From contig JBGSTX010000067.1 of the NCBI GenBank assembly GCA_041736305.1, positions 1-23,186 on the forward strand: a DNA stretch of 23,186 nucleotides. Reading direction: 5' to 3'. Under the pieces are notes generated by a model, which did not search any database, was not told the origin of the DNA, and saw only the letters and a program-made list of their open reading frames with translations. Both the position numbers and the translations under genes were made by a program. This document shows, in pieces, positions 2,512-13,980 of this stretch; the first letter of the stretch is position 1, and the number at the start of each line of letters is the position of its first letter. This DNA is from Oligoflexus sp. Its GTDB lineage: Bacteria > Bdellovibrionota_B > Oligoflexia > Oligoflexales > Oligoflexaceae.

Positions 2512-5500
2512 ATGCGCTACATCAACGGCAAACTCATCTTCTCCCCATCCGACCTCGTCGTCTTCGCCGAGTCCGAATTCGCCTCTTGGATGGATCGCTG
2601 TCACAAAGAAGACCCCTCCCGCTTCGCCATGGACGAAGCCGATCCCCTGATGCTGATCCTTGGGGAGAAGGGAGCTACCCACGAAGCGAAGGTGTACGAG
2701 AGACTCAAGACCGAGGCAAGGTCCTTTGCTGACCTTAGAGGTGGGGACCTCGAACATACGATCAGAGCGATGAAAGAGGGTGTCGAGCTTATCTATCAAG
2801 CCGGCCTCACCCATGGACCCTTTGCGGGCGTTGCCGACTTTCTCCGCCGTATCCCGGGACAATCCGCTTTTGGGAACTATTGCTACGAGGTCTGGGATTC
2901 CAAGCTAGCCCGGACTGCCAAGACCTCGGCTCTTCTCCAACTCTGCACCTACACCGATATTCTCGAAGCCATCCAAGGCGTGCGAGCCGAACACTTTGGA
3001 CTCATACTAGGGAAAGGCAATGAGGAACGCTTCCGCGTCAGTGATTTTTTCTATTACTATGCGATGCTGAAGTCTAGATTCCTCGGTTTTCAGGATAGCT
3101 TCAATGCTAATCAAAGACCCGCCCCCGCTGACTCTCGCTCTTTCGGCAAATGGAGTGACGTAGCCACTGCAATCTTCGAAGAAGAAGAGTCTCTCTTTCA
3201 AGTCGCTCACATCACGCGACTGCAGGTCAAACGTTTCAACAAGACCGGCCTCAAAAGGATGACGGACCTTGCCAAATCCACGGCTGGCTCCATCCCAGGG
3301 GTGAATAAAGACGTTCACCAACGCCTCATCGAACAAGCACAGCTGCAACTCGCTTCGAAGGGCAAAGATAAACCGGAGTTCAAGCTATTGCCAGCCGATG
3401 GCAGCAAATTAGCCCAACTCCCTCAGCTGAATCCAGGTGACATATTCTTCGATATGGAGGGCTACCCCCTCGACGAAAACGGCATCGAATATCTCTGGGG
3501 TTACGTCTACCTCCAAGACGGCAAGCCGATCTTTGACTGCATCTGGGCCCATAACGCGGAAGGAGAGCGCCGAGCCGTTGAGAAATTCATTGATTATGCG
3601 CACGATCGCTGGCTGAAGTTTCCTGGTATGCACGTCTATCACTATGCTTCTTACGAGACTCGAGCCGTAAAGACCCTAGCCCAACGCTACGGAACCTGCC
3701 TCGATAAGCTGGATGACCTTCTGCGCAACGAAATTTTTGTCGACCTCTACGATACGGTTCGTGGCTCCCTTATGCTGGGTGCCGAGAGCTATTCCATCAA
3801 GAAGCTTGAGCTTCTTTACCGGGATAAGCGCCAAAGCGAAGTCACAAGCGCGATGGCTTCTGTGGTCTACTATCAGACCTGGCTTAATCTCAATGCTAGT
3901 GATCAGGCCGGGGCTGCAAAAGTCCTGGAAGACATTAGAATTTACAACAAAGATGACTGTGATTCGACCTTTGAGCTAGCTATTTGGCTCGACGCCCAGA
4001 AAAAAATGATCGGCATCTGCAATCCAACCCTGGCGGAAGTCCGCCCACCCGAATCCACTCCACCTGAGCTCGTAGCTCTCATGCAAAAGCTTGAGAAAAT
4101 GGGACCGGTGGGACAATTGATGGGGCATCTGATCGGACATGACAAGAGAGAAGATAATGTCTCCTGGTGGGAGCACTTCGCCAACCTCAAAGCCCCCGTT
4201 GAAACTCTTTTGAATGATCCCGACGTCATAGCAGGCGTGAGCTACAACGGTTCGGCTCCTGGCAAGGTCGATCGGAGTCTAAGCTATCAGTTCACCTTTG
4301 ACCCTAGTCAGCCTTTAGAAGTGGAAGAGGGGCAGTCTTTTATCTTTTCGTTTGGGGCTAAGCCGAGGAATGTCACGATTCTGCAGATCGATCTGGAGGG
4401 AGGCACTCTTCTCGCGAAGACGACTGAAAAAGATGTCCCCCCCTTATTCAATCTCCTACCCCCTCGTGAAACGGTCAAATCTCTCGACGAGCATATACTG
4501 GCTGAAGCTCAGGCCTACAGCGAGGGCAAAGTTCATCAGGCTCTCGACCACTTCCTCCATCGCCGGGCTCCTCAGCTGAAGGCAGGGGTAAGCTTGCCTA
4601 AGAATGAGAAGGAAACAACGGTTGAAAATATCATCAAAGTCATCGCAGCCATGGAAGGGAGCTCACTGGTTATCCAAGGCCCCCCTGGCGCCGGCAAGAC
4701 TTATGTAGGAGCCCAAGCTATAGCTGCTCTGTGTAGGGCAGGTAAAAAGGTAGGCATAACGTCCAACGCTCATAAAGCTATCGATCACCTTCTCGTAGCT
4801 GTTAACCAGCTTCTTGAGGGCTCGGGTCTTGGGGTCCTAAAGATCAATAAGCTGGATTATAGCCCAGCTCCCACCAACATTGATGTCAAGCCGAGAGTCG
4901 AGTCCTTAGAAGGGTATTCTCTCATTGGCGGCACTGCCTGGGCCTTTATTCGGGATGTCTTTGAAGGCAGTCTGGATTATCTCTTCATCGATGAGGCAAG
5001 CCAAGTGAGCCTCTCTAAGCTCGTGGCTTGCGCGAAGGCAGCCAAAAATTTCGTTTTTCTCGGCGATCAGATGCAGCTCTCTCAGCCGTCCCGGGCCAGT
5101 CATCCGGGCGAGAGCGGGCAATCGTGTCTCGAATACTTTCTGCAGGATCATGCAACCATTCCTGCCGATAAGGGGATCTTCCTCCCCCTGACTCGACGGA
5201 TGCATCCCACTCTCTGCGCTCTGGTCTCCGACACAGTTTATGAGGGGCGCCTGCACTCCCACCCGACGACTGAGGAGCGCTTTCTGATAAGACATTCCTC
5301 GTCTATGATCCCCAAGATAGAGGGAGTCTTGTACGTGCCAGTCGAACATCAGGCCAACCGGCAGTCGAGCCAGGAAGAGGCTGCGTGTATCAGAGAATTG
5401 GTCGACGAGATTTTACAGATGAAGTTTCAAACGGCACCAGGACAGGTGAGAAGTCTCAGCAGCAAAGATATCCTAATTGTGGCTCCCTATAACCAGCAGG

Positions 5501-5823
5501 TTCGTCTCTTGAGACGGACACTCGGCGAAGACTTTCTGATCGGGAGTGTCGACAAGTTCCAGGGTCAAGAAGCACCCATCGTCATACTATCGCTCGGCAC
5601 CTCGTCGGCACATGACGCTCCGCGAGGTCTAGACTTCGTATTCAACCGAAATCGCCTCAACGTTGCCCTCAGTCGAGCTCAGTCTCTGGCCATTGTCGTT
5701 GGCTGCCCGGGGCTTAGCCTCAGTTTTGCTGCCTCTCCTAAGCAGATGAGTCTTGTGAACTTCTTTTGCCGGATCGTGCATCAGGGTTCTCAAGAAGTAC
5801 TTGCGAAAACAAAGGCGTCCTAG
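2512..5823 (+). CDS. TM0106-family RecB-like nuclease + RNase H-like domain + Upf1/DNA2-like SF1 helicase
   Basis: Nuclease: SPSDL, PD-(D/E)xK-like GVADFL..YEVWDSKLA..LLQLCTY. RNase H-like: IFFDMEG, VYHYASYE, FVDLY, YNKDDCDST. Helicase: QGPPGAGKT, FIDEASQ, GDQMQL, RRMHP, APYNQQV, SVDKFQGQE, NRLNVALSRA. GGAGG SD. Confidence 0.9.
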   Translation: MRYINGKLIFSPSDLVVFAESEFASWMDRCHKEDPSRFAMDEADPLMLILGEKGATHEAKVYERLKTEARSFADLRGGDLEHTIRAMKEGVELIYQAGLTHGPFAGVADFLRRIPGQSAFGNYCYEVWDSKLARTAKTSALLQLCTYTDILEAIQGVRAEHFGLILGKGNEERFRVSDFFYYYAMLKSRFLGFQDSFNANQRPAPADSRSFGKWSDVATAIFEEEESLFQVAHITRLQVKRFNKTGLKRMTDLAKSTAGSIPGVNKDVHQRLIEQAQLQLASKGKDKPEFKLLPADGSKLAQLPQLNPGDIFFDMEGYPLDENGIEYLWGYVYLQDGKPIFDCIWAHNAEGERRAVEKFIDYAHDRWLKFPGMHVYHYASYETRAVKTLAQRYGTCLDKLDDLLRNEIFVDLYDTVRGSLMLGAESYSIKKLELLYRDKRQSEVTSAMASVVYYQTWLNLNASDQAGAAKVLEDIRIYNKDDCDSTFELAIWLDAQKKMIGICNPTLAEVRPPESTPPELVALMQKLEKMGPVGQLMGHLIGHDKREDNVSWWEHFANLKAPVETLLNDPDVIAGVSYNGSAPGKVDRSLSYQFTFDPSQPLEVEEGQSFIFSFGAKPRNVTILQIDLEGGTLLAKTTEKDVPPLFNLLPPRETVKSLDEHILAEAQAYSEGKVHQALDHFLHRRAPQLKAGVSLPKNEKETTVENIIKVIAAMEGSSLVIQGPPGAGKTYVGAQAIAALCRAGKKVGITSNAHKAIDHLLVAVNQLLEGSGLGVLKINKLDYSPAPTNIDVKPRVESLEGYSLIGGTAWAFIRDVFEGSLDYLFIDEASQVSLSKLVACAKAAKNFVFLGDQMQLSQPSRASHPGESGQSCLEYFLQDHATIPADKGIFLPLTRRMHPTLCALVSDTVYEGRLHSHPTTEERFLIRHSSSMIPKIEGVLYVPVEHQANRQSSQEEAACIRELVDEILQMKFQTAPGQVRSLSSKDILIVAPYNQQVRLLRRTLGEDFLIGSVDKFQGQEAPIVILSLGTSSAHDAPRGLDFVFNRNRLNVALSRAQSLAIVVGCPGLSLSFAASPKQMSLVNFFCRIVHQGSQEVLAKTKAS

Positions 5824-6238
5824 CTCAGCCGCGGCTAGGGACGACTCTGTTGGCTGCCAGTATCAATCAGCCGATTGCCGCGATTCAGGAGGCGTGTGAA
5901 GCCCAAAAGTTAAGCATCACTAACATCCAATTCTACGGCAACGCGAGGCTAGCTAACGACCAAACTGGCTAGAATCAAGCAGGTGAAAGCAAACAAGGTT
6001 CAAGCCTACCCACCCTTGCAAATTCATCTCGACACGCAGATTAAGTCCTGATAACTAAAATTTTCCGATTACGCTTCAAGCATAAGCCCAGACTGAGGTC
6101 AAACGATGCTTATCGCGCACGCTAGATCAACTCCCCTCTTGAGTCTTCCGTGAATGTTTCTCAGCTATTCGTCCTCGCTCCGCCCAAGGTAACTTCCACA
6201 GGAACGTTGCGAAACTGTCTCAAGAGAGGAAACGCACA

Positions 6239-8293
6239 ATGAGCAAGCACATATTCAAGCGCTTCATTATCTGCCTTGTATTCTCTCTAAACCTTATTGC
6301 ATGTACGAATGCCGAGAATGAAACCTCCGGGCTCCTTTCCGATTCCGCTCACAAATTCCAGATCTGTAACCGTACGAGCTTTGCTCTTGAGCTTCTAGAG
6401 CGCTACCAAGAAGGCAAACAAGATTACATCTCCCTCTGGCTTCGTGTCGGGCCTTACGAATGTGCTCCTGTCAGCTACCGTCAAACTAACTCTGATTATT
6501 ATATCCAGTCGACCGCGGGGCGCTACGTACCCGGCCCCACTGAATATAGCTACGATTCGTCAAATCAAGGCATAGTCTGCTGGGACCGAAGCATGCTGTT
6601 TTCCAAAAAAGCGCAGTATAGCTACGATGGAAACGAGGTGTTGTTGAGCGGTACTTGTCCGCACGGCATGGATAGAAAATCAGTTGCGTCTCTGAAGTGG
6701 ACTATTGACTCGGTTGGCGATCAAGATCTGATTTACACAGCATTAATTTCTACGGGGAAGATTGATGAAAGCGATAGAATCGACGGATGGAAATTTGTCG
6801 ATTTTTCGGAATCCGAGCTAGATCGAATAAAGAGAGAACTTACCAAAACCGAGCAAAGCATAGAGCGGATCAAAGATAATCTGAAGAGCTGCGGTAATCA
6901 GATCACGCAGTGGCAAAAGCAGAAGATCTTTTCTCTCGATACCAACGAAATTTCTAGTTTTGAAGCCTGCTCGGACTCGACTGCACGCAGAGCTATCAAA
7001 AGCACTATCGATGAAGCGAAAGAGAAGACTCGCAAACTTCTGCAGGACTTCCTCGATAGTGCTAACGGCTTTTTTACTCGCATACTTACTGAAGTTAACT
7101 CCGTCCTCAGCGAAACTTTTGGGTTTGATCAGGGGGCCCTGAGTTCCTTTTTGGGTGCAAAGGGCAGTACCTGGTCTCAACAGCCAGTTGACGCCTTTGT
7201 TCCGGAACTAAACCAGGCTCTGGATGCAAGCTATGGCCGGGACCATAAAGAATTTCTCGAGACGGCTCATGATGGGCTCCTGGTCATGGCTGAGCAAGGC
7301 CAGAGAATCCTAAACCAGTTGAACGATGAGCAGGCCGCTTTCAGCTACCTGAAGCAAGCTACCTCGGTTCGCGAGCACCTTGAGGGCAGGACGTTCGATC
7401 GGGTGGAAGAGATTGACTCTGAAGGATGGCCCACCGATTCTCCAGTTCCACAGGATATTCGTCAGGTGACGATCAAGCAGAAGATAGCTCCTCGGGACCC
7501 GGAACGGGCTGCGCGGCTGGAGGCGATACTGAAGCAGTGGCATAGCGCCGGGGTGCCTGAGACTGTTATTAAGCAGCGTTTGGCCTATATCGACGCTCTG
7601 CGTGCCCTGGGAGATGGCTTTGTCGCTGCAGCCTCGGACGTTCCCGAGGTCCTCGCTAAAATGCGGGATATCCTTGATGGGGCCATTACAGCTGCTAAAG
7701 ATGTGAGCACCTGCATCGCTTCGGTTGGAGTTGGTGGCGATTTTGTTGACTGGTACGAGCTGACTCAAGGGCGTGACTACTGCAACGGAGATGAGTTAAG
7801 CTTTTCGGGAAGAGTCGTGTCAGCCGTAGGCCTTGTGGCGGGAAGTGCTAAATTCTGGCGCGTGATGGGCGAAGCTGTTGGGATATCGGTTAATAGCAGT
7901 CGGGTATTTAAGAACACTGAAGAAGTTATCGACGCTGCGAAGGCTTTGGGATGGAAAGGGACGAAGGAAGTATTCGAAGATATCAGGGACGCTGTCACCT
8001 CCCTTGAAAAAGAAGGCAAATTGCCAGCCAGCTACCTTACAAAGAACGAAGCCAAAGCATTAGGCTGGGAACAAAGTAGGGGCAACTTGGGTGAAATCGC
8101 TCCAGGGAGAAAAATAGGTGGTGACGCATTTGGAAATCGGCAAGGAAAGCTTCCGACTGACAAAACTTACTTCGAAGCTGACCTAGGATACCGAGGGGGA
8201 TACAGAGGCACGGAAAGAATCGTCTACTCATCTGATGGTAAGAAGATCTACCTTACAAATGATCACTACGAAACCTTTACAGAGCTAAAATGA
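6239..8293 (+). CDS. Lipoprotein polymorphic toxin with pre-toxin TG-like motif and C-terminal barnase-family RNase
   Basis: Lipobox LIA-C; PT-TG-like GDFVDWYELTQGRDYCNGDELS..GRVVSAVGL; C-terminus LPASYLTKNEAKALGW..GNL..IAPG..IGGD.F.NR.GKLP..FEAD..Y.GGYRG.ERIVYSSD..IY.T.DHYETFT closely follows barnase; barstar directly downstream. Confidence 0.92.
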   Translation: MSKHIFKRFIICLVFSLNLIACTNAENETSGLLSDSAHKFQICNRTSFALELLERYQEGKQDYISLWLRVGPYECAPVSYRQTNSDYYIQSTAGRYVPGPTEYSYDSSNQGIVCWDRSMLFSKKAQYSYDGNEVLLSGTCPHGMDRKSVASLKWTIDSVGDQDLIYTALISTGKIDESDRIDGWKFVDFSESELDRIKRELTKTEQSIERIKDNLKSCGNQITQWQKQKIFSLDTNEISSFEACSDSTARRAIKSTIDEAKEKTRKLLQDFLDSANGFFTRILTEVNSVLSETFGFDQGALSSFLGAKGSTWSQQPVDAFVPELNQALDASYGRDHKEFLETAHDGLLVMAEQGQRILNQLNDEQAAFSYLKQATSVREHLEGRTFDRVEEIDSEGWPTDSPVPQDIRQVTIKQKIAPRDPERAARLEAILKQWHSAGVPETVIKQRLAYIDALRALGDGFVAAASDVPEVLAKMRDILDGAITAAKDVSTCIASVGVGGDFVDWYELTQGRDYCNGDELSFSGRVVSAVGLVAGSAKFWRVMGEAVGISVNSSRVFKNTEEVIDAAKALGWKGTKEVFEDIRDAVTSLEKEGKLPASYLTKNEAKALGWEQSRGNLGEIAPGRKIGGDAFGNRQGKLPTDKTYFEADLGYRGGYRGTERIVYSSDGKKIYLTNDHYETFTELK

Positions 8294-8568
8294 CAAAGTC
8301 TCAATTTGAAATAGATGGCAAGAAGATAAACACCGTGAATGACTTTCACACGGAAATTGCAGCGTTGCTTCGACTACCTGAATGGTATGGCCGAAACCTT
8401 GATGCCCTTTGGGATTTATTGACAGGTCATGTTGATACAAATGTAAAGCTGATATGGAAAAATCACTCGGTTTCTAAAGACCGATTGGGAAATGAATTCG
8501 ATAAGATAATTTCAGTATTTCTTGATCTTAGAAAGTCGGAACCCGACTTTGAATTTATTCTCGACTAA
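8290..8568 (+). CDS. Barstar-family immunity protein
   Basis: IDGKKI..FH..IA..L.LPEWYGRNLDALWDLLTG barstar signature; ATGA overlap with the toxin stop. Confidence 0.95.
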   Translation: MTKSQFEIDGKKINTVNDFHTEIAALLRLPEWYGRNLDALWDLLTGHVDTNVKLIWKNHSVSKDRLGNEFDKIISVFLDLRKSEPDFEFILD

Positions 8569-8639
8569 GATGCAGAGCTTTGGGCAAGAAGTTGTAGGCA
8601 AACGAGTCGCGGAGGTCATGACAAGATTTGCAGCCCTTC

Positions 8640-9195
8640 TTGATGTCGAACGCCAAAGATAAGCTTACTGAAAGGGACAAGCAGATCTCCGAACTCCAGC
8701 AGGTGGTAGGTGAACAGACCCTCCAGATCAGAGCGCTAAAAAAAGCATAGAAACAGCGGAACGGGACGAGAACAAGTCATAAAAGCCAAGACTGAGCTGG
8801 AGGCCGAAGGCTATAAGGAGTCAATCCGAAAGCTTTGCGATTGGTTCGATGTACCTCGGGCTTCTGTCTATCGCGAGCCAAAGGAGAGGCACAGATATAA
8901 ACTTGATGAAGGTTTCGTAGCGGAGATCCGAGCCATCATCGAGAAAAAGCCCTATTATGGTCTCCGGCGCATTGAGTGGGCCTTGAATCGGGAACGTTAC
9001 AAGCGGGTCAACATCAAGGCTGTTCATCGCATCCTCAAGATCAAAGGTTGGCTCATGAAAAAGAGGCAAAAAGGGATGCGCCTTCGAGTCGAATGTTGGG
9101 TTAGTCAAACGTCTATATCTGACACGCGCTGGGCAGTTGATATGTCCCATTTCATGACTCGGAAAGATGGCTGGTGTCATATTACAGCGGTCATC
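8640..9195 (+). mobile_element. IS3-family transposase remnant (orfA 3' end + orfB 5' half), truncated at both ends
   Basis: orfA end KQISELQQVVGEQTLQIRALKK with A7G run at 8738-8745. orfB frame from about 8776: SIRKLCDWFDVPRASVY..PYYGLRRI..VNIKAVHRIL..RWAVDMSH..DGWCHITAVI, breaking where IS3 integrase cores read VID. No terminal IRs seen. Confidence 0.85.
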
Positions 9196-9229
9196 GGGCT
9201 GCTGCGAGTTGTGATGCCATTACGAAGAT
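9195..9229 (+). repeat. 35-bp dispersed direct repeat (copy of 21892..21926)
   Basis: cgggctgctgcgagttgtgatgccat[t/g]acgaagat, 34/35 identical between the two sites. Confidence 0.95.
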
Positions 9230-9309
9230 GCAGGCCTAGCGCTTGCAGCGTGATGCGCCTCCCGAGATGGCATTGGGGCAGCTGTTCGGTACAGGCAGGC
9301 CAACATCGC

Positions 9310-9353
9310 TTGACTTAAATAGCTAAGTTAGCTAAACTAAGCTAACTTAGCTA
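9310..9353 (+). promoter_or_regulatory. Sigma70 promoter with overlapping palindromic operator of the TA operon
   Basis: TTGACT(9310-9315)-N17-TAAACT(9333-9338); perfect 14-bp inverted repeat TAGCTAAGTTAGCT(9320-9333)-N6-AGCTAACTTAGCTA(9340-9353) straddling the -10, typical of type II TA autorepression. Confidence 0.85.
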
Positions 9354-9366
9354 GATGAGGTAGGGT

Positions 9367-9600
9367 GTGAGAAAATTAAAGACCAAAGAGGCTAAAGATA
9401 ACTTTTCGCTATTAATCAGGCTTCTGAGAGAAGGGAAAGAAGATCGGGTAATCATCTATAATGGTGATATTCCTGTAGCCGAACTCCGACCTTATCAAGA
9501 ACCCCCTAGTAAGATCCATCTTTTTGGCACCGACAAAACTGCCAAGATGTCTGAAGATTTTGATCGTTATCTACCGGATGAAGTGAAGGATCTTGTGTGA
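9367..9600 (+). CDS. Phd/YefM-family antitoxin
   Basis: 77 aa; EAKDNFSLLI..VII...PVAELRPY pattern, acidic tail; GTGA overlap with the PIN gene; GAGG SD. Confidence 0.85.
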   Translation: MRKLKTKEAKDNFSLLIRLLREGKEDRVIIYNGDIPVAELRPYQEPPSKIHLFGTDKTAKMSEDFDRYLPDEVKDLV

Positions 9601-9995
9601 GCGAATTTTTGTTGGATACTTGCAGCTTGATCTTTGCTCTTGGCGCCGATGACAAAGCCAAAATCCTTCGAGACATTATCGCCTCCTCCCAGGTCTACGT
9701 GTCGGCCATCAACTTTTGGGAAATTGCTATTAAAACTTCCAAAGGTAAACTCTCCATGAGTATTACCCTTGATGATTTAATAGAGCGCTGTTCAAAGGCA
9801 CTAGCAGGCGTCCTGCCAATAGAAGCAAGTGATATATTGGACTATAAAAATCTTTTGGATAGATCGTCGCACAAAGACCCTTTTGATCTTATGCTCCTAG
9901 CTCAGGCAAAAAGTCGAAAAATGCTGCTGATTACCAGCGATCAGATTTTACTCTCAGAGTTTAAAAGACTAACCCGCCCCGTTAAGAAGAATTGA
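9597..9995 (+). CDS. vapC: PIN-domain (VapC-type) toxin
   Basis: LLDTC, VSAINFWEIAIK, HKDPFDLMLLAQA and LITSD motifs. Confidence 0.9.
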   Translation: MSEFLLDTCSLIFALGADDKAKILRDIIASSQVYVSAINFWEIAIKTSKGKLSMSITLDDLIERCSKALAGVLPIEASDILDYKNLLDRSSHKDPFDLMLLAQAKSRKMLLITSDQILLSEFKRLTRPVKKN

Positions 9996-10523: not shown

Positions 10524-11861
10524 ATGCTCAACAGAATTCTTAAAGCTTCAATCTTGCTGCACCTGCTGATTAGCTCATGGACATTAACAGCCAGTGAATC
10601 TGCTTCTGTCTCTTTTTGCGAAGTTGATCCTTCCTTTTCCGTTTGTACCGAGAAAAAGGTCGAATGCAGTTTTTGCCATTCCGAAACTCCGAAATTAAAT
10701 CCCTACGGTGCTGATCTCATGACGGCCCTCAGCAAATTGAGCGGGTATTCAGCAGCCGAAATGCAGCGCTTTCTGCCTTCGGCTGTTATCAGCATTCAGG
10801 AACTCGACAGCGATAAAGATGGAGCAAGCAACGGTGAAGAGATCAGCCTCGGTCGCGCCCCTGGAACGGCTGATGTCAATGAAGATCAGAGCGAAGCCTT
10901 TATCTACGATGCTGCTACCGCCCTTAGGCGCCTCTCTGTCCTCTATTGCGGTCGTCATCCTAGCTTTGTCGAGATGAACGGCTTGGATGGCGCCACCGAT
11001 AAAAGAGGCTACCTTCATGAGCAGCTCGGAAAATGCTTGGAAAGCACTTATTGGTTGAATGAAGGTCTCAATCGTATCGCCGACGATAAGATAAGACCTG
11101 ATGCCCAGTTTGGGATCGATTCCAACGTGGTGTTTGCCGACTGGGACTTCGATTATCGGCTTTTTTCCCACATCATGAGCAAGGACAGAGACGTTAGAGA
11201 GCTCTTGACTGCCCAGTACCATATCGATGTCAATGGAAACGTGGTCCAGGGGCCTATAGCCAGCACTCTCGTGGCCGCGCCTGCGCGCCAGGTTTTAGGC
11301 GGTAACGGCCAGCCACTGGTCGCCACGCGGCGCCAGGGTATGATCACAACCCAATGGTTTATGATGACCAACAACATGCTAGATCCTCTGCCTCGCTCCA
11401 CGGGGGCCGAAGTTTATCGGGCCTGGCTAGGTCTGGATATCGCCAAGAGTCAAGGTTTAAAGCCAGTCGCCGCTGAGCCACGAGATGTAGACGCCAAAGG
11501 CATAAAAGCCCCGGACTGCAGTTTTTGCCACAGTACCCTCGATCCTTTGAGCTACCCATTTTCGGCCTATAGTTTTCAAGGCAACTATGTCGGTCCCAAA
11601 GCCTGGGGCGAGGCTGGGTCGATTCTTGGACAGCCCGTCGCTAATCTGCGCGCTTGGGTCAATGTCGCCATAGCCAGTGATGAATTCAAGATTTCCTTTG
11701 GCAAAACTCTTTGGAATCACGCTTTCAGCCGAGAACCCTCTGGCTATCAAAGCCAGGAATTTGCCGACCTATGGAAGTCTATGCCCGAGGACGGCTACTC
11801 TGCCAACAAGCTGATACATCGTCTGATTGATACCAAATCTTTTGGTGGAGTGCCCAAATGA
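10524..11861 (+). CDS. Secreted protein with two CxxCH haem-c motifs
   Basis: Signal peptide; CSFCH at codons 48 and 332; DSDKDGASNGEE Ca-loop-like motif; CH..LDPL pattern as recalled from planctomycete/myxobacterial cytochrome-like DUF proteins. Confidence 0.75.
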   Translation: MLNRILKASILLHLLISSWTLTASESASVSFCEVDPSFSVCTEKKVECSFCHSETPKLNPYGADLMTALSKLSGYSAAEMQRFLPSAVISIQELDSDKDGASNGEEISLGRAPGTADVNEDQSEAFIYDAATALRRLSVLYCGRHPSFVEMNGLDGATDKRGYLHEQLGKCLESTYWLNEGLNRIADDKIRPDAQFGIDSNVVFADWDFDYRLFSHIMSKDRDVRELLTAQYHIDVNGNVVQGPIASTLVAAPARQVLGGNGQPLVATRRQGMITTQWFMMTNNMLDPLPRSTGAEVYRAWLGLDIAKSQGLKPVAAEPRDVDAKGIKAPDCSFCHSTLDPLSYPFSAYSFQGNYVGPKAWGEAGSILGQPVANLRAWVNVAIASDEFKISFGKTLWNHAFSREPSGYQSQEFADLWKSMPEDGYSANKLIHRLIDTKSFGGVPK

Positions 11862-12547
11862 AAATCTATCAAGCTATCTTTCTCATACTCTTCGCTATTC
11901 AGCTGAGCGACTGCTCCAAGAGAAAAGTCAGAGGAGATTACGGAGATAGCAACCGCTCAACACCCAGCGATGGGTCCCAGGATAGTTCGCAAGGCGACGA
12001 GGACGAGCTGACGGAAGCCGAAAGAATTGCGAGGCAGGCACTTATCTCGCAGAACATGAATGTAATCTGGAAACGCTCCAAGGCTCTGGAATTATCGATC
12101 GCCAGTGCCCTGCGCTTGAGCCCGGCCGATATGTGTGTGGTAGGGAGCGGCAGCAACTGCATCAGCCAAGCCTTTCTCCCTTTGCTGGGCGGCAATGATG
12201 CCTTTACCAAAGGTCAATACCTTCCGCCCGCTTCCCCGTCCCGGCTGACTCCCTCGGTGGTCGACCGCGTTCTGCTCTCATCGTGCATCCGCCGAGCCGA
12301 GCTCGATCAGGCAGCCGCTCCTCAGATTTTTAAACAGTTTTCCCTCGCGGGTAGCGCCGCAGCAGTGAGCGATCAGCAGCTCGACGCTCTGAGCGATCTT
12401 CTCTATAAAGAGTTTCTTGCTCGAAAACCGTCACAGGATCAGCTGGAGATACTTCGTAAACTGAAGGACCAGAGCGCAACGGCTTTCGAGCTGGCAGTCC
12501 TGACTTGCTTTACTGTTAGTACTCAAACGGAATTTCTATTCTATTGA
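11858..12547 (+). CDS. Hypothetical lipoprotein
   Basis: MKIYQAIFLILFAIQLSD-C signal, acidic linker, four further Cys; ATGA overlap with the upstream gene. Confidence 0.75.
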   Translation: MKIYQAIFLILFAIQLSDCSKRKVRGDYGDSNRSTPSDGSQDSSQGDEDELTEAERIARQALISQNMNVIWKRSKALELSIASALRLSPADMCVVGSGSNCISQAFLPLLGGNDAFTKGQYLPPASPSRLTPSVVDRVLLSSCIRRAELDQAAAPQIFKQFSLAGSAAAVSDQQLDALSDLLYKEFLARKPSQDQLEILRKLKDQSATAFELAVLTCFTVSTQTEFLFY

Positions 12548-12558
12548 AAGAGAGACCC

Positions 12559-13980
12559 ATGGAAAAGCCCAGCAGACGCCAGTTTCTGAAAACAGCCGCC
12601 ATCTCTTCCCTCGGTAGCGGCTTGTCGCTAAACGGATTGCAGGCTCAAACCGGCAGCCGCGCCCCGGCCCGTTACTTATTCGTTATAGCTGCCAACGGCG
12701 GCGGCGACATCACGGAAAGTCTCCTGCCTATCGTCTCAGGCGGCGCCCTCTCTTTCCCGGTCGCCGAACTCCGCAGCATCGCCAACTCTCCCTTCGTAGT
12801 CCCGGTCCTGCCTGAAGCAGCTTTTACACTGATGCAGGCTCGATTTGCCAACAATTATCAGATGGCGACTTTTCTCACCAAGCATAAGACCGATACCGTG
12901 GTCATGACACAGACCAATTCCAGCGTTAACCACAACGTGGCAGCCGCGCGCGCCTTGACTGGTGACGACATCAACCGGGGTCAGACTCTGATGGAAGCTG
13001 CGAGCTTAAAATATGGCCAGGGCCTGGCTCTGCCTAACTGCAGCATGGCCAACGGTCACTATCTGCTCCATGGCTCCGACGGCGGGCTGCCGAATTTTGC
13101 CAGATCTGAGACGGTCATCGATCCTCTGACCTTCGGTTTCAGTACCCACGCAATCAAGGGCGTGAATAGAGCCCCGTCGCAAGAATCCATTAATTTTGCT
13201 CGCGGCCTTCGTGCTGATCTAGAAAAGTCTTCGCCAATTTTTCAAAAGCTCAAGAACCACGAGACCCTCGCCCACTATTTGGAAAATCGCCAGACTCTGA
13301 TCAATTCGATCGAAAAAGGCGATTACCTGGATAAGCTTAATTTAAGTCAAAGCTCGGGTGCGGACTATCAAAAGATCTTAGCTGCTTTCCCAGGGATCAC
13401 GAGCGATCCCCTGCAGGCCCAGGCAGCCTTAGCCTTTCTTTTAGCCAAAAATAACCTATCTTGCGCTCTAACAATCTCACCGGGCGGGCAGTTCCTTCAG
13501 CTCAACGGTGCCGGCACCAACGTCGCGACTGGGTTCGACCTCTCTCATACCAATCATCGTGAAACTCAGTATGTTATGTGGAATCGCATCATGCGGACCG
13601 CCGATGCTCTGATAGATTTGCTCAAATCGCAGGATGTCGACAACGATCCAGCGCAGGGTAAAATGTGGGACCGCAGCTTGATCTTTATCGCCACAGAATT
13701 TGGCCGAACCCGCTTCCAACCTGCTCGCGGCGGCGCCAGCGGTCACAATCTGAACAATGGCAGTATCCTGATTTCGCCATTGCTCAAAGGCAATACCATT
13801 TATGGCGGCGTGAACGGGGCGACGGGTGCAACTTTTGGCTTCGATCGAGTGACAGGTGCTCCTCGTCCCAACGATCCTGCCGCCACCATGAACGAGAAAG
13901 ACGTTTACAGCGTGATCTGCCAAGCGCTCGGGATCAGCTTTGAGGGTCGGCGTGATATACCTGCCATGGTTAAAGCATGA
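12559..13980 (+). CDS. Tat-exported DUF1501-like protein
   Basis: SRRQFLK twin-arginine signal, GGGD, SVNH, GFDLSH, TEFGRT, GNTIYGG motifs. Start is ATG 12559 or coupled TTG 12544. Confidence 0.75.
   Translation: MEKPSRRQFLKTAAISSLGSGLSLNGLQAQTGSRAPARYLFVIAANGGGDITESLLPIVSGGALSFPVAELRSIANSPFVVPVLPEAAFTLMQARFANNYQMATFLTKHKTDTVVMTQTNSSVNHNVAAARALTGDDINRGQTLMEAASLKYGQGLALPNCSMANGHYLLHGSDGGLPNFARSETVIDPLTFGFSTHAIKGVNRAPSQESINFARGLRADLEKSSPIFQKLKNHETLAHYLENRQTLINSIEKGDYLDKLNLSQSSGADYQKILAAFPGITSDPLQAQAALAFLLAKNNLSCALTISPGGQFLQLNGAGTNVATGFDLSHTNHRETQYVMWNRIMRTADALIDLLKSQDVDNDPAQGKMWDRSLIFIATEFGRTRFQPARGGASGHNLNNGSILISPLLKGNTIYGGVNGATGATFGFDRVTGAPRPNDPAATMNEKDVYSVICQALGISFEGRRDIPAMVKA

Follow-up and report, generated by a model that had tools for sequence, protein, structure and literature searches.

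A gene for a predicted barnase-tipped lipoprotein and its barstar partner

We analyzed a 23,186-nucleotide (nt) stretch of an Oligoflexus sp. genome (Bdellovibrionota; assembly GCA_041736305.1, contig JBGSTX010000067.1), referred to as the window for its whole length. Two overlapping genes on its forward strand encode a predicted lipoprotein toxin of 684 amino acids (aa), which ends in a barnase-family ribonuclease (RNase) tip, and a 92-aa inhibitor of the barstar family. In window coordinates, the features of this module are as follows.

6239..8293, + strand: toxin gene, 684 aa (open reading frame, ORF, and Pfam domains)
6239..6304, + strand: type II signal peptide with lipobox L-I-A-C, Cys22 (sequence inspection)
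6353..6769, + strand: N-terminal beta domain, aa 39-177, DUF1036-like, with conserved cysteines (strands in the AlphaFold model; predicted local distance difference test, pLDDT, about 80-90)
6809..7381, + strand: helical stalk, aa 191-381 (long helices in the AlphaFold model)
7394..7948, + strand: conserved pre-toxin region, aa 386-570, including the PT-TG match (common to most of 112 relatives)
7949..8290, + strand: barnase-family RNase tip, aa 571-684, 114 aa (Pfam and alignment to a solved barnase)
8290..8568, + strand: barstar immunity gene, 92 aa, without a signal peptide (Pfam and alignment; its start overlaps the toxin stop)

The toxin and barstar ORFs share 4 nt (ATGA). Ribonuclease and PT-TG were the only Pfam matches on the toxin, the former (PF00545) covering aa 589-683 (E = 4.4e-14, 53.2 bits). 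The tip aligned with a solved barnase (1bse) at E = 6.7e-32 and, when the active-site equivalents were mapped by hand on this alignment, K27, R59, E73, R83, R87 and H102 fell on aa 602, 634, 646, 656, 660 and 676, with all six residues kept. The 92-aa product matched Barstar (PF01337, E = 2.3e-22, 79.2 bits) and a solved barstar (E = 4e-15), with D35, W38 and D39 kept and Y29 replaced by W. It was the sole barstar found in the genome. The module is thus like the barnase-barstar pair of Bacillus amyloliquefaciens in its catalytic and inhibitor residues; there, however, barnase is a free secreted enzyme, whereas here it is the C-terminal cassette of a 684-aa lipoprotein.

The toxin starts with a basic n-region and a hydrophobic core followed by L-I-A-C up to Cys22 (read by eye). 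This cysteine is invariant in the eight aligned members of the closest sub-family, and a gene for LspA (signal peptidase II) is present in the genome. The protein therefore carries a lipoprotein signal sequence such as is used to recognize SitA toxins, and the export signal characteristic of polymorphic toxins is supplied in this family by a lipobox or by signal peptides, again by inspection. An AlphaFold model built from a 49-sequence alignment (mean pLDDT 73) placed a disordered tether at aa 24-33, ahead of the beta domain (aa 39-176 in the model). DUF1036 was detected on the corresponding part of homologue P0002 (E = 1.9e-5; its 25.7 bits exceed the cut-off of 23), at E = 0.097 only on the near-identical paralog P0001, and was not listed for the window toxin at E ≤ 0.01. 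The Atlas structure of P0002 compared with DUF1036 clusters gave a TM score of 0.56, and its feature score of 0.83 is merely a lead. We know of no function for DUF1036; the DUF1036-like beta domain is nonetheless the best lead on the identity of the toxin N-terminus.

No fold is assignable to the stalk or to the pre-toxin region from structure searches. A VIA-wide structure search returned generic helical bundles only (Z no higher than 8.4), Foldseek with the whole toxin model listed barnase rows (all at E ≥ 0.03) and weak pVHL-like rows (E 0.09-0.2), and an Atlas search with the P0002 stalk gave no usable match. The pre-toxin region was modeled as a confident helical domain (about aa 400-550, pLDDT about 85-95). 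PT-TG (PF14449) matched aa 500-545 (nt 7736-7873) at E = 1.9e-4, its 21.8 bits falling just short of the gathering cut-off of 23.5; the initial annotation had proposed a PT-TG-like motif at ~7730-7845. Many homologues passed this cut-off over the same region (for example P0035, 44.1 bits). The conserved region is much longer than the family model, with ~185 aa against 68 positions. C515 shows no variation across the 49 sequences, at least 90% of which also retain D504, E507, G511 and G535. Near the tip boundary, R555 is invariant in the eight members of the sub-family.

At E ≤ 0.01, Pfam placed no RHS, CdiA, VgrG, PAAR, LXG or MafB family on the toxin. Its N-terminal ~570 aa matched no named toxin or trafficking family in Pfam, NCBIfam or PADLOC; NCBIfam had no match for the toxin, and PADLOC matched neither the toxin nor the barstar. 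As Pfam domains, residues, lipobox, model and absent trafficking domains all agree, the initial annotation described this protein correctly: a lipobox (LIA-C) followed by a helical stalk and a barnase domain retaining K27, E73, R83, R87 and H102, coupled to barstar. A match of the N-terminus to a characterized toxin family, which would have refuted the proposal, was not found in the three databases.

Exchange of tips and immunity genes among paralogs and relatives

Contig C56 of the same genome carries a paralog, P0001 (674 aa), that is 94% identical to the window from 52 nt 5′ of the ATG to codon ~569. After that codon there is no similarity to the window, DNA identity stopping at 7942-7948, and P0001 continues into a ~105-aa tip without a Pfam family. 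The next gene encodes Imm8 (E = 5.6e-28), which Zhang et al. (2012; PMC3482391) chiefly pair with Ntox7. A third paralog (728 aa, contig C232) starts with an ordinary signal peptide and ends in an EndoU tip (E = 2.4e-11); the small ORF after it has no assignment. A fourth PT-TG protein, a 511-aa lipoprotein with lipobox L-F-S-C, is encoded on contig C83 (L025 1073-2958, - strand; PT-TG E = 3.7e-10); it has a Gly/Ser-rich linker and a tip without a Pfam family, and an Imm40 gene lies downstream. At the window joint we noted a 25-nt direct repeat (7588-7612 and 7927-7951, 72% identity) whose second copy is located exactly between pre-toxin region and tip. This is probably due to chance, and a repeat scan around the module found short two-copy repeats only.

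The same pattern extends to more distant proteins. An exhaustive phmmer search with aa 1-585 (E ≤ 1e-3) yielded 112 representative relatives; a k-mer protein search with aa 1-560 recovered the paralog alone. The whole N-terminus could be aligned in a handful of the 112. Most share only aa ~390-570, and this pre-toxin region occupies the same position in relatives of about 560-840 aa. Their tips belong to Pfam families as diverse as barnase, EndoU, Colicin-DNase/WHH, CdiA_C, Colicin_D, YwqJ-type and BURPS668_1122-type deaminases, PT-HINT plus Tox-REase-3, Ntox30 and TNT, and many others have no Pfam family. With tips defined as the sequence after the mapped end of the conserved region (≥60 aa), BLAST clustering sorted 99 tips into 47 clusters; barnase accounted for three of them (3/99). 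Tabulating the C-terminal domains, as the initial annotation had proposed, thus revealed many different tips rather than the same RNase tip throughout, the outcome that would have refuted the proposal.

Identities of tips and N-termini were also discordant. Over 114 aa, the window and P0012 tips share 81% identity, and the N-termini of these two proteins only 36% (175 aa). With the tip of P0105, a protein whose N-terminus consists of an M48 peptidase plus PT-TG, the window tip shares 61% identity. The immunity gene changes with the tip, from barstar to Imm8, Imm40, SUKH and CdiI_4, the last two being found at other loci with a deaminase tip and an EndoU tip, respectively. At the sequence level, tip and immunity gene behave as an exchangeable cassette, because the tips are unrelated beyond a shared N-terminus, the immunity genes are matched to them and the identities of tips and N-termini disagree. 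On this evidence the locus would belong to a polymorphic toxin family in the sense of Zhang et al. (2012), and the proposed polymorphic toxin, barnase-tipped and paired with a barstar immunity gene, is borne out by the 47 tip clusters and by the paralog with an unrelated tip and Imm8. The shared N-terminal region is under purifying selection: over the 569 codons shared by the window gene and P0001, dN/dS (the ratio of nonsynonymous to synonymous rates) was 0.144 at a dS of 0.186, an estimate from two copies that does not distinguish which lineage is constrained.

Two further arrangements were seen among the relatives. P0081, P0085, P0089, P0091, P0102, P0103, P0105 and P0110 form a separate architecture, in which a signal peptide or lipobox is followed by an M48 metallopeptidase, then PT-TG and the tip, which suggests a processing peptidase that is built in rather than separately encoded. 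In a metagenome-assembled genome (MAG) of the Cellvibrionaceae, a 182-aa ORF (L007 4807-5355, + strand) with a hydrophobic N-terminus and an LHH nuclease match (E = 4.7e-25) directly follows a 582-aa family member and may be a split or orphan toxin module.

A chimeric assembly had to be considered, because the N-terminal coding region occurs a second time in the genome at 94% identity. Logan contigs built independently from run X1, which is labelled as a hot springs metagenome, spanned 6003-6415 (413 nt) and 7858-8563 with 0 mismatches. As they bridge both critical joints, they argue against a chimera. With 0.65 of the sampled words present in it, X1 is possibly the sample from which the window was assembled. 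In run X2, from a second study, the joint between N-terminus and barnase was recovered at about 96% identity, together with a loose end leading into the alternative tip; both tip forms therefore coexist in two data sets. No RNA run holding the locus was listed in the run search.

Members of this unnamed family are few and occur in several phyla. Of 131 Bdellovibrionota genomes, 10, the window's own included, matched aa 385-570 at E ≤ 1e-5, and the locus scan of named genomes found relatives in two Oligoflexus MAGs, in Oligoflexus tunisiensis Shr3 and in one Cellvibrionaceae MAG. A genome rated by the scan as congeneric with the window's has its match at the coordinates of the O. tunisiensis locus, which puts the window in Oligoflexus as that tool delimits the genus. 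O. tunisiensis is cultivable and has an orthologous operon (L005). The sources of ten relatives include a Pseudobdellovibrionaceae MAG (annotated "DUF1036 domain-containing protein"), Pseudomonadota MAGs and the myxobacterium Archangium primigenium ("hypothetical protein").

Upstream secreted proteins and the route of delivery

We examined the gene order at 11 loci (the window, C56, C232, three named Oligoflexus, one Cellvibrionaceae and four further Bdellovibrionota). At 10 of them the toxin start abuts or overlaps a same-strand upstream gene whose product has a signal peptide (by inspection), and this gene is usually the last of three or four such genes. BLAST and local hidden Markov model searches grouped the upstream products into families that recur across Oligoflexus and other Bdellovibrionota.

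Family A0: about 160-260 aa
Family A: about 312-340 aa
Family B: about 418-434 aa, helical
Family C/D: 208-445 aa, C being trypsin-like
Family E: 416-420 aa, standing in for the others in a second locus type

On C56, the accessory gene encodes a 733-aa protein with a signal peptide, a coiled coil, a trypsin-like domain and a helical tail, and it overlaps the toxin ATG. This family C member matched Pfam Trypsin at E = 2.5e-6 (27.9 bits, above the cut-off of 20.6). The His and Ser of the catalytic triad are invariant in four of four sequences, and the Asp position is ambiguous. No Pfam family was found on the accessory proteins other than the trypsin-like one. The B-type (A5) and E-type (A4) alignments had no detectable relation (hhalign probability 1.5%), and a PDB profile search with two accessory families gave rows at E ≥ 0.13, the top one being EsxA, a lead only. 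We also considered a ClyA-like pore former from a weak Bacillus_HBL match of one accessory protein (E = 8.5e-4, below the cut-off), an idea that was dropped because the accessory proteins have no internal hydrophobic segment. In the window's genome, a 392-contig bin that is 92.7% complete, family C was found only on C56 and E only on C232, and A0, A and B were not found.

The window has a remnant of such an operon ahead of the toxin gene.

5997..6105, + strand: retained upstream (presumed promoter) region of the ancestral operon (blastn against C56)
6106..6179, + strand: 5′ remnant of the accessory gene, with ATG at 6106, 15 codons and TGA at 6151 (codon 16)
6180..6186, + strand: deletion joint, where 7 nt replace 2,073 nt of the C56 locus (L020 6444-8516; gap between blastn segments)
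6187..6238, + strand: 3′ remnant, the last ~52 nt of the accessory gene, with the toxin ribosome-binding site (block of 94% identity with C56)

Positions 5997-6179 are 87% identical to C56, where they correspond to the 109 nt 5′ of the 733-aa gene and the first 74 nt of the gene itself. The retained upstream region yielded no sigma-70 consensus site; an AGGA motif precedes the toxin ATG. According to these alignments, the window copy arose by duplication and then lost the accessory gene, and its tip and immunity cassette, which differ from those on C56, were either acquired or kept. The initial annotation had reported no delivery or secretion genes here. Indeed, no secretion-system family was matched among the other larger window ORFs scanned, but this absence is a secondary loss: an accessory gene was deleted in the window, and 10 of the 11 loci have secreted accessory genes directly upstream.

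Starting from the observed architecture, the retained catalytic and inhibitor residues, the gene coupling, the cassette polymorphism, the purifying selection and the accessory deletion, we consider it likely that the two window genes are the toxin-immunity module of a Sec-exported polymorphic toxin family in Oligoflexus (Bdellovibrionota), with the following mode of action. Sec would export the 684-aa precursor, which would then receive a lipid at Cys22 and reach the outer membrane, as the lipobox and LspA suggest. Tether, DUF1036-like domain and stalk, arranged as in the model, would present or carry the helical pre-toxin region with its PT-TG match. The tip could then be released near the boundary around the invariant R555, with a trypsin-like protein as the putative partner enzyme, and would enter the cytoplasm of a neighbouring cell and degrade RNA. 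The cytoplasmic barstar would protect the producer and its kin, as homology and gene coupling predict. The window toxin might work alone, or might borrow in trans the intact accessory protein of its 94%-identical paralog.

Several observations weigh against this scheme. The window copy may be impaired, since its accessory gene is deleted. Its PT-TG match stays below the Pfam cut-off and, as read from the alignment, the C-T-G motif of its relatives is C-N-G here. The barnase part of the AlphaFold model is poor (pLDDT about 35-65), and dN/dS comes from a single pair of genes. The paralogs could also stem from co-binned strains, given the 392 contigs and 2.7% contamination of the bin. Finally, ordinary signal peptides predominate among the 112 relatives, and the anchor may be incidental to delivery. 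A lipobox was recognized by inspection in eight close relatives (P0001-P0006, P0011 and P0014). Because most relatives start with ordinary signal peptides, a lipid anchor is not the general delivery principle of the family, and it is more likely a presentation device of one sub-clade. The suggestion of an undescribed lipoprotein toxin family holds insofar as the N-terminus has no named family; the lipobox, however, is confined to a small sub-clade, and the class as such was already described (Zhang et al., 2012). Membrane exchange of the SitA type, vesicles, kin discrimination and a use against prey, all raised in the initial annotation, are conjectural.

How the toxin leaves the cell and reaches its target can be read in other ways. 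The upstream secreted proteins (A0, A, B, C/D, or E), three or four per locus, could themselves form a new apparatus for export, processing or translocation, with the window copy as a satellite that uses the C56 protein in trans. This is possible, if doubtful. The abutting or overlapping genes with signal peptides at 10 of 11 loci favor it, as do the recurrence of the accessory families across Oligoflexus and other Bdellovibrionota genomes, the invariant His and Ser of the trypsin-like domain, the lack of any Pfam family but Trypsin on these proteins, and the retention of the operon's upstream region and a gene remnant in the window. Upstream genes of similar size also occur in the Cellvibrionaceae MAG, although one of them matches the E-type only indirectly, through a fragment. 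However, A0, A and B are missing from the window's 92.7% complete genome, the accessory sets vary between sub-families, the B- and E-types show no detectable relation, and the absence of internal hydrophobic segments leaves a pore former unsupported. Moreover, the ORF that overlaps the start of the C83 toxin is uncharacterized, and locus L011 has no accessory-like gene upstream. Tentatively, these loci might represent an undescribed multi-gene antagonism system of diderms, in which three or four secreted proteins without a known family, including a trypsin-like peptidase, would export, process or deliver the nuclease and deaminase tips of Sec- or lipoprotein-exported PT-TG toxins without a type V, VI or VII secretion system (T5SS, T6SS, T7SS), the window holding a satellite copy. 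If true, this would answer how PT-TG toxins are deployed in diderms.

Alternatively, the window copy could be a decaying orphan, its toxin no longer deployed and its barstar kept against the barnase-tipped toxins of neighbours. The 2,073-bp deletion, the premature stop in the remnant and the lack of a sigma-70-like promoter site upstream are in line with this. Yet the 684-codon frame is intact, dN/dS is low (0.144), none of the six catalytic residues checked has been lost, the copy still has its upstream 109 nt and its ribosome-binding site, and X2 holds the same joint between N-terminus and barnase at about 96% identity. We regard disuse of the toxin as unlikely.

A SitA-like mode of transfer would make the toxin an inner-leaflet lipoprotein of the outer membrane, passed on by receptor-mediated membrane fusion, with the N-terminal ~570 aa as an escort domain. 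The general layout agrees with that given for SitA in PMC8546572: a lipoprotein signal, a large conserved N-terminus, modular nucleases, downstream immunity and sometimes an upstream accessory gene. One distant relative (P0060) comes from the myxobacterium Archangium primigenium. According to the same source, SitA toxins are defined by myxobacterial escort domains and TraAB. The present host, in contrast, belongs to Bdellovibrionota, a different phylum, and a lipobox is the exception among the relatives, most of which start with ordinary signal peptides; the resemblance is one of layout. NCBIfam had no match for the toxin, the presence of SitA models in that database not being established, the Archangium relative is named merely "hypothetical protein", and the literature on PT-TG, polymorphic toxins and lipoproteins yielded no SitA paper. 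The Myxococcus cysteine-rich repeat TIGR02232, which TraA carries, gave no match in the genome, nor in the control genomes, and so has no bearing either way. Transfer of this kind is quite improbable here.

TssC (PF05943) and PAAR were not found in the 92.7% complete genome, the control genomes being positive. A search for ShlB gave no match in the genome or in its control and so carries no information; three secretins are present. Unlike T6SS, contact-dependent inhibition, Rhs and T7SS effectors, the toxin has no PAAR/VgrG, two-partner secretion/filamentous haemagglutinin (TPS/FHA), RHS or LXG/WXG domain. The MafB N-terminal domain (DUF1020) was not found on the toxin at E ≤ 0.01, and no gene lies between the upstream helicase gene and the toxin. 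Lastly, it is highly improbable that the pair is no weapon but a plain secreted RNase and its inhibitor, used to scavenge nutrients. Simple barnase-barstar pairs are widespread and show little polymorphism according to Zhang et al. (2012; PMC3482391), but here the RNase comes after 570 aa of conserved N-terminal sequence that include a pre-toxin domain, and close and distant relatives with unrelated tips and matching immunity genes contradict this explanation.

The Sec-exported polymorphic toxin family that we favor is of a known kind, since Sec-dependent, lipobox-bearing, PT-TG and SitA toxins were all described earlier. PT-TG was defined in Gram-positive toxins and proposed to act in receptor interaction or release (Zhang et al., 2011; PMC3113570); a review calls it a linker of unknown function. 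Its best-known carriers are T7SS LXG/WXG substrates (PMC13483458 and a review). Becerra Soto et al. (2026; Pandoomain, PMC13483458) catalogued 10,226 PT-TG proteins and distinguish "PT-TG toxin" and "PT-TG singleton" groups in monoderms and diderms whose secretion is unknown. The main text of this survey makes no mention of lipoprotein, Bdellovibrio, Oligoflexus or DUF1036, and its supplementary tables may list such architectures. As in the PT-TG toxins of these accounts (PMC3113570, PMC13483458), a helical PT-TG pre-toxin region here stands directly before exchangeable nuclease or deaminase tips with immunity downstream. The Oligoflexus protein differs in its diderm host, Sec/lipoprotein signal, DUF1036-like domain, ~200-aa stalk and ~185-aa conserved region. 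Zhang et al. (2012; PMC3482391) described Sec-dependent polymorphic toxins, the lipobox-bearing APD1/APD2 effectors, MafB with its lipoprotein partner MafA, and barnase cassettes paired with barstar. The MafB/MafA toxins of Neisseria and the APD1/APD2 toxins of Amoebophilus are similar to our family in combining a signal peptide or lipobox, a conserved N-terminus, a polymorphic C-terminus and an upstream secreted or lipoprotein partner (PMC3482391). Unlike MafB, the window toxin has neither MafB-N (DUF1020) nor another named N-terminal family, and its accessory genes, which include a trypsin-like protein, are unrelated to MafA as far as Pfam tells.

Literature searches on Oligoflexus toxins, DUF1036, and lipoprotein polymorphic toxins with a trypsin-like accessory protein returned nothing on this toxin family. 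As far as these searches show, the architecture, the accessory operon and the host group are undescribed, and no toxin of this type had been noted in Oligoflexia before. Polymorphic toxins influence which bacteria can coexist, and each known delivery route has become a field of its own. The locus and its relatives make the question of PT-TG secretion in diderms concrete, with a defined architecture, a sharp cassette boundary and conserved secreted accessory genes, and one genome that contains both an intact copy and a copy lacking the accessory gene offers a natural comparison.

Neighbouring genes in the window

Directly upstream of the toxin module, positions 2512-5823 (+ strand) encode a 1,103-aa protein with RNase_H_2 followed by a superfamily 1 (SF1) helicase (AAA_11/AAA_12). 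It gave a partial PADLOC match to the helicase region of Mokosh MkoA (E = 1.7e-44) and may be a defence gene. An X2 contig is exact over 5500-5827 and then diverges, the toxin module not being beside the helicase gene there. On the other side, X2 departs from the window sequence after 8622. About 800 nt separate the barstar gene from a Phd-like gene (8569-9366); they contain only ORFs without assignment, at 8821-9180 (- strand) and 8983-9318 (+ strand), and a transposase remnant considered at 8821-9318 had no Pfam or NCBIfam support. The genes that follow at 9367-9995 (+ strand) form a toxin-antitoxin pair, Phd-like (weak, E = 0.0028) and PIN-domain (E = 1.4e-13). Ahead of this pair, a palindrome at 9320-9353 with a perfect 14-nt inverted repeat and a promoter-like site (9310-9338) look like an operator for autoregulation. 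Further downstream, a trio of genes (10524-13980, + strand) has weak PSCyt3/DUF1588 and DUF1501 matches, all below the Pfam cut-offs, and a twin-arginine translocation (TAT)-like signal.

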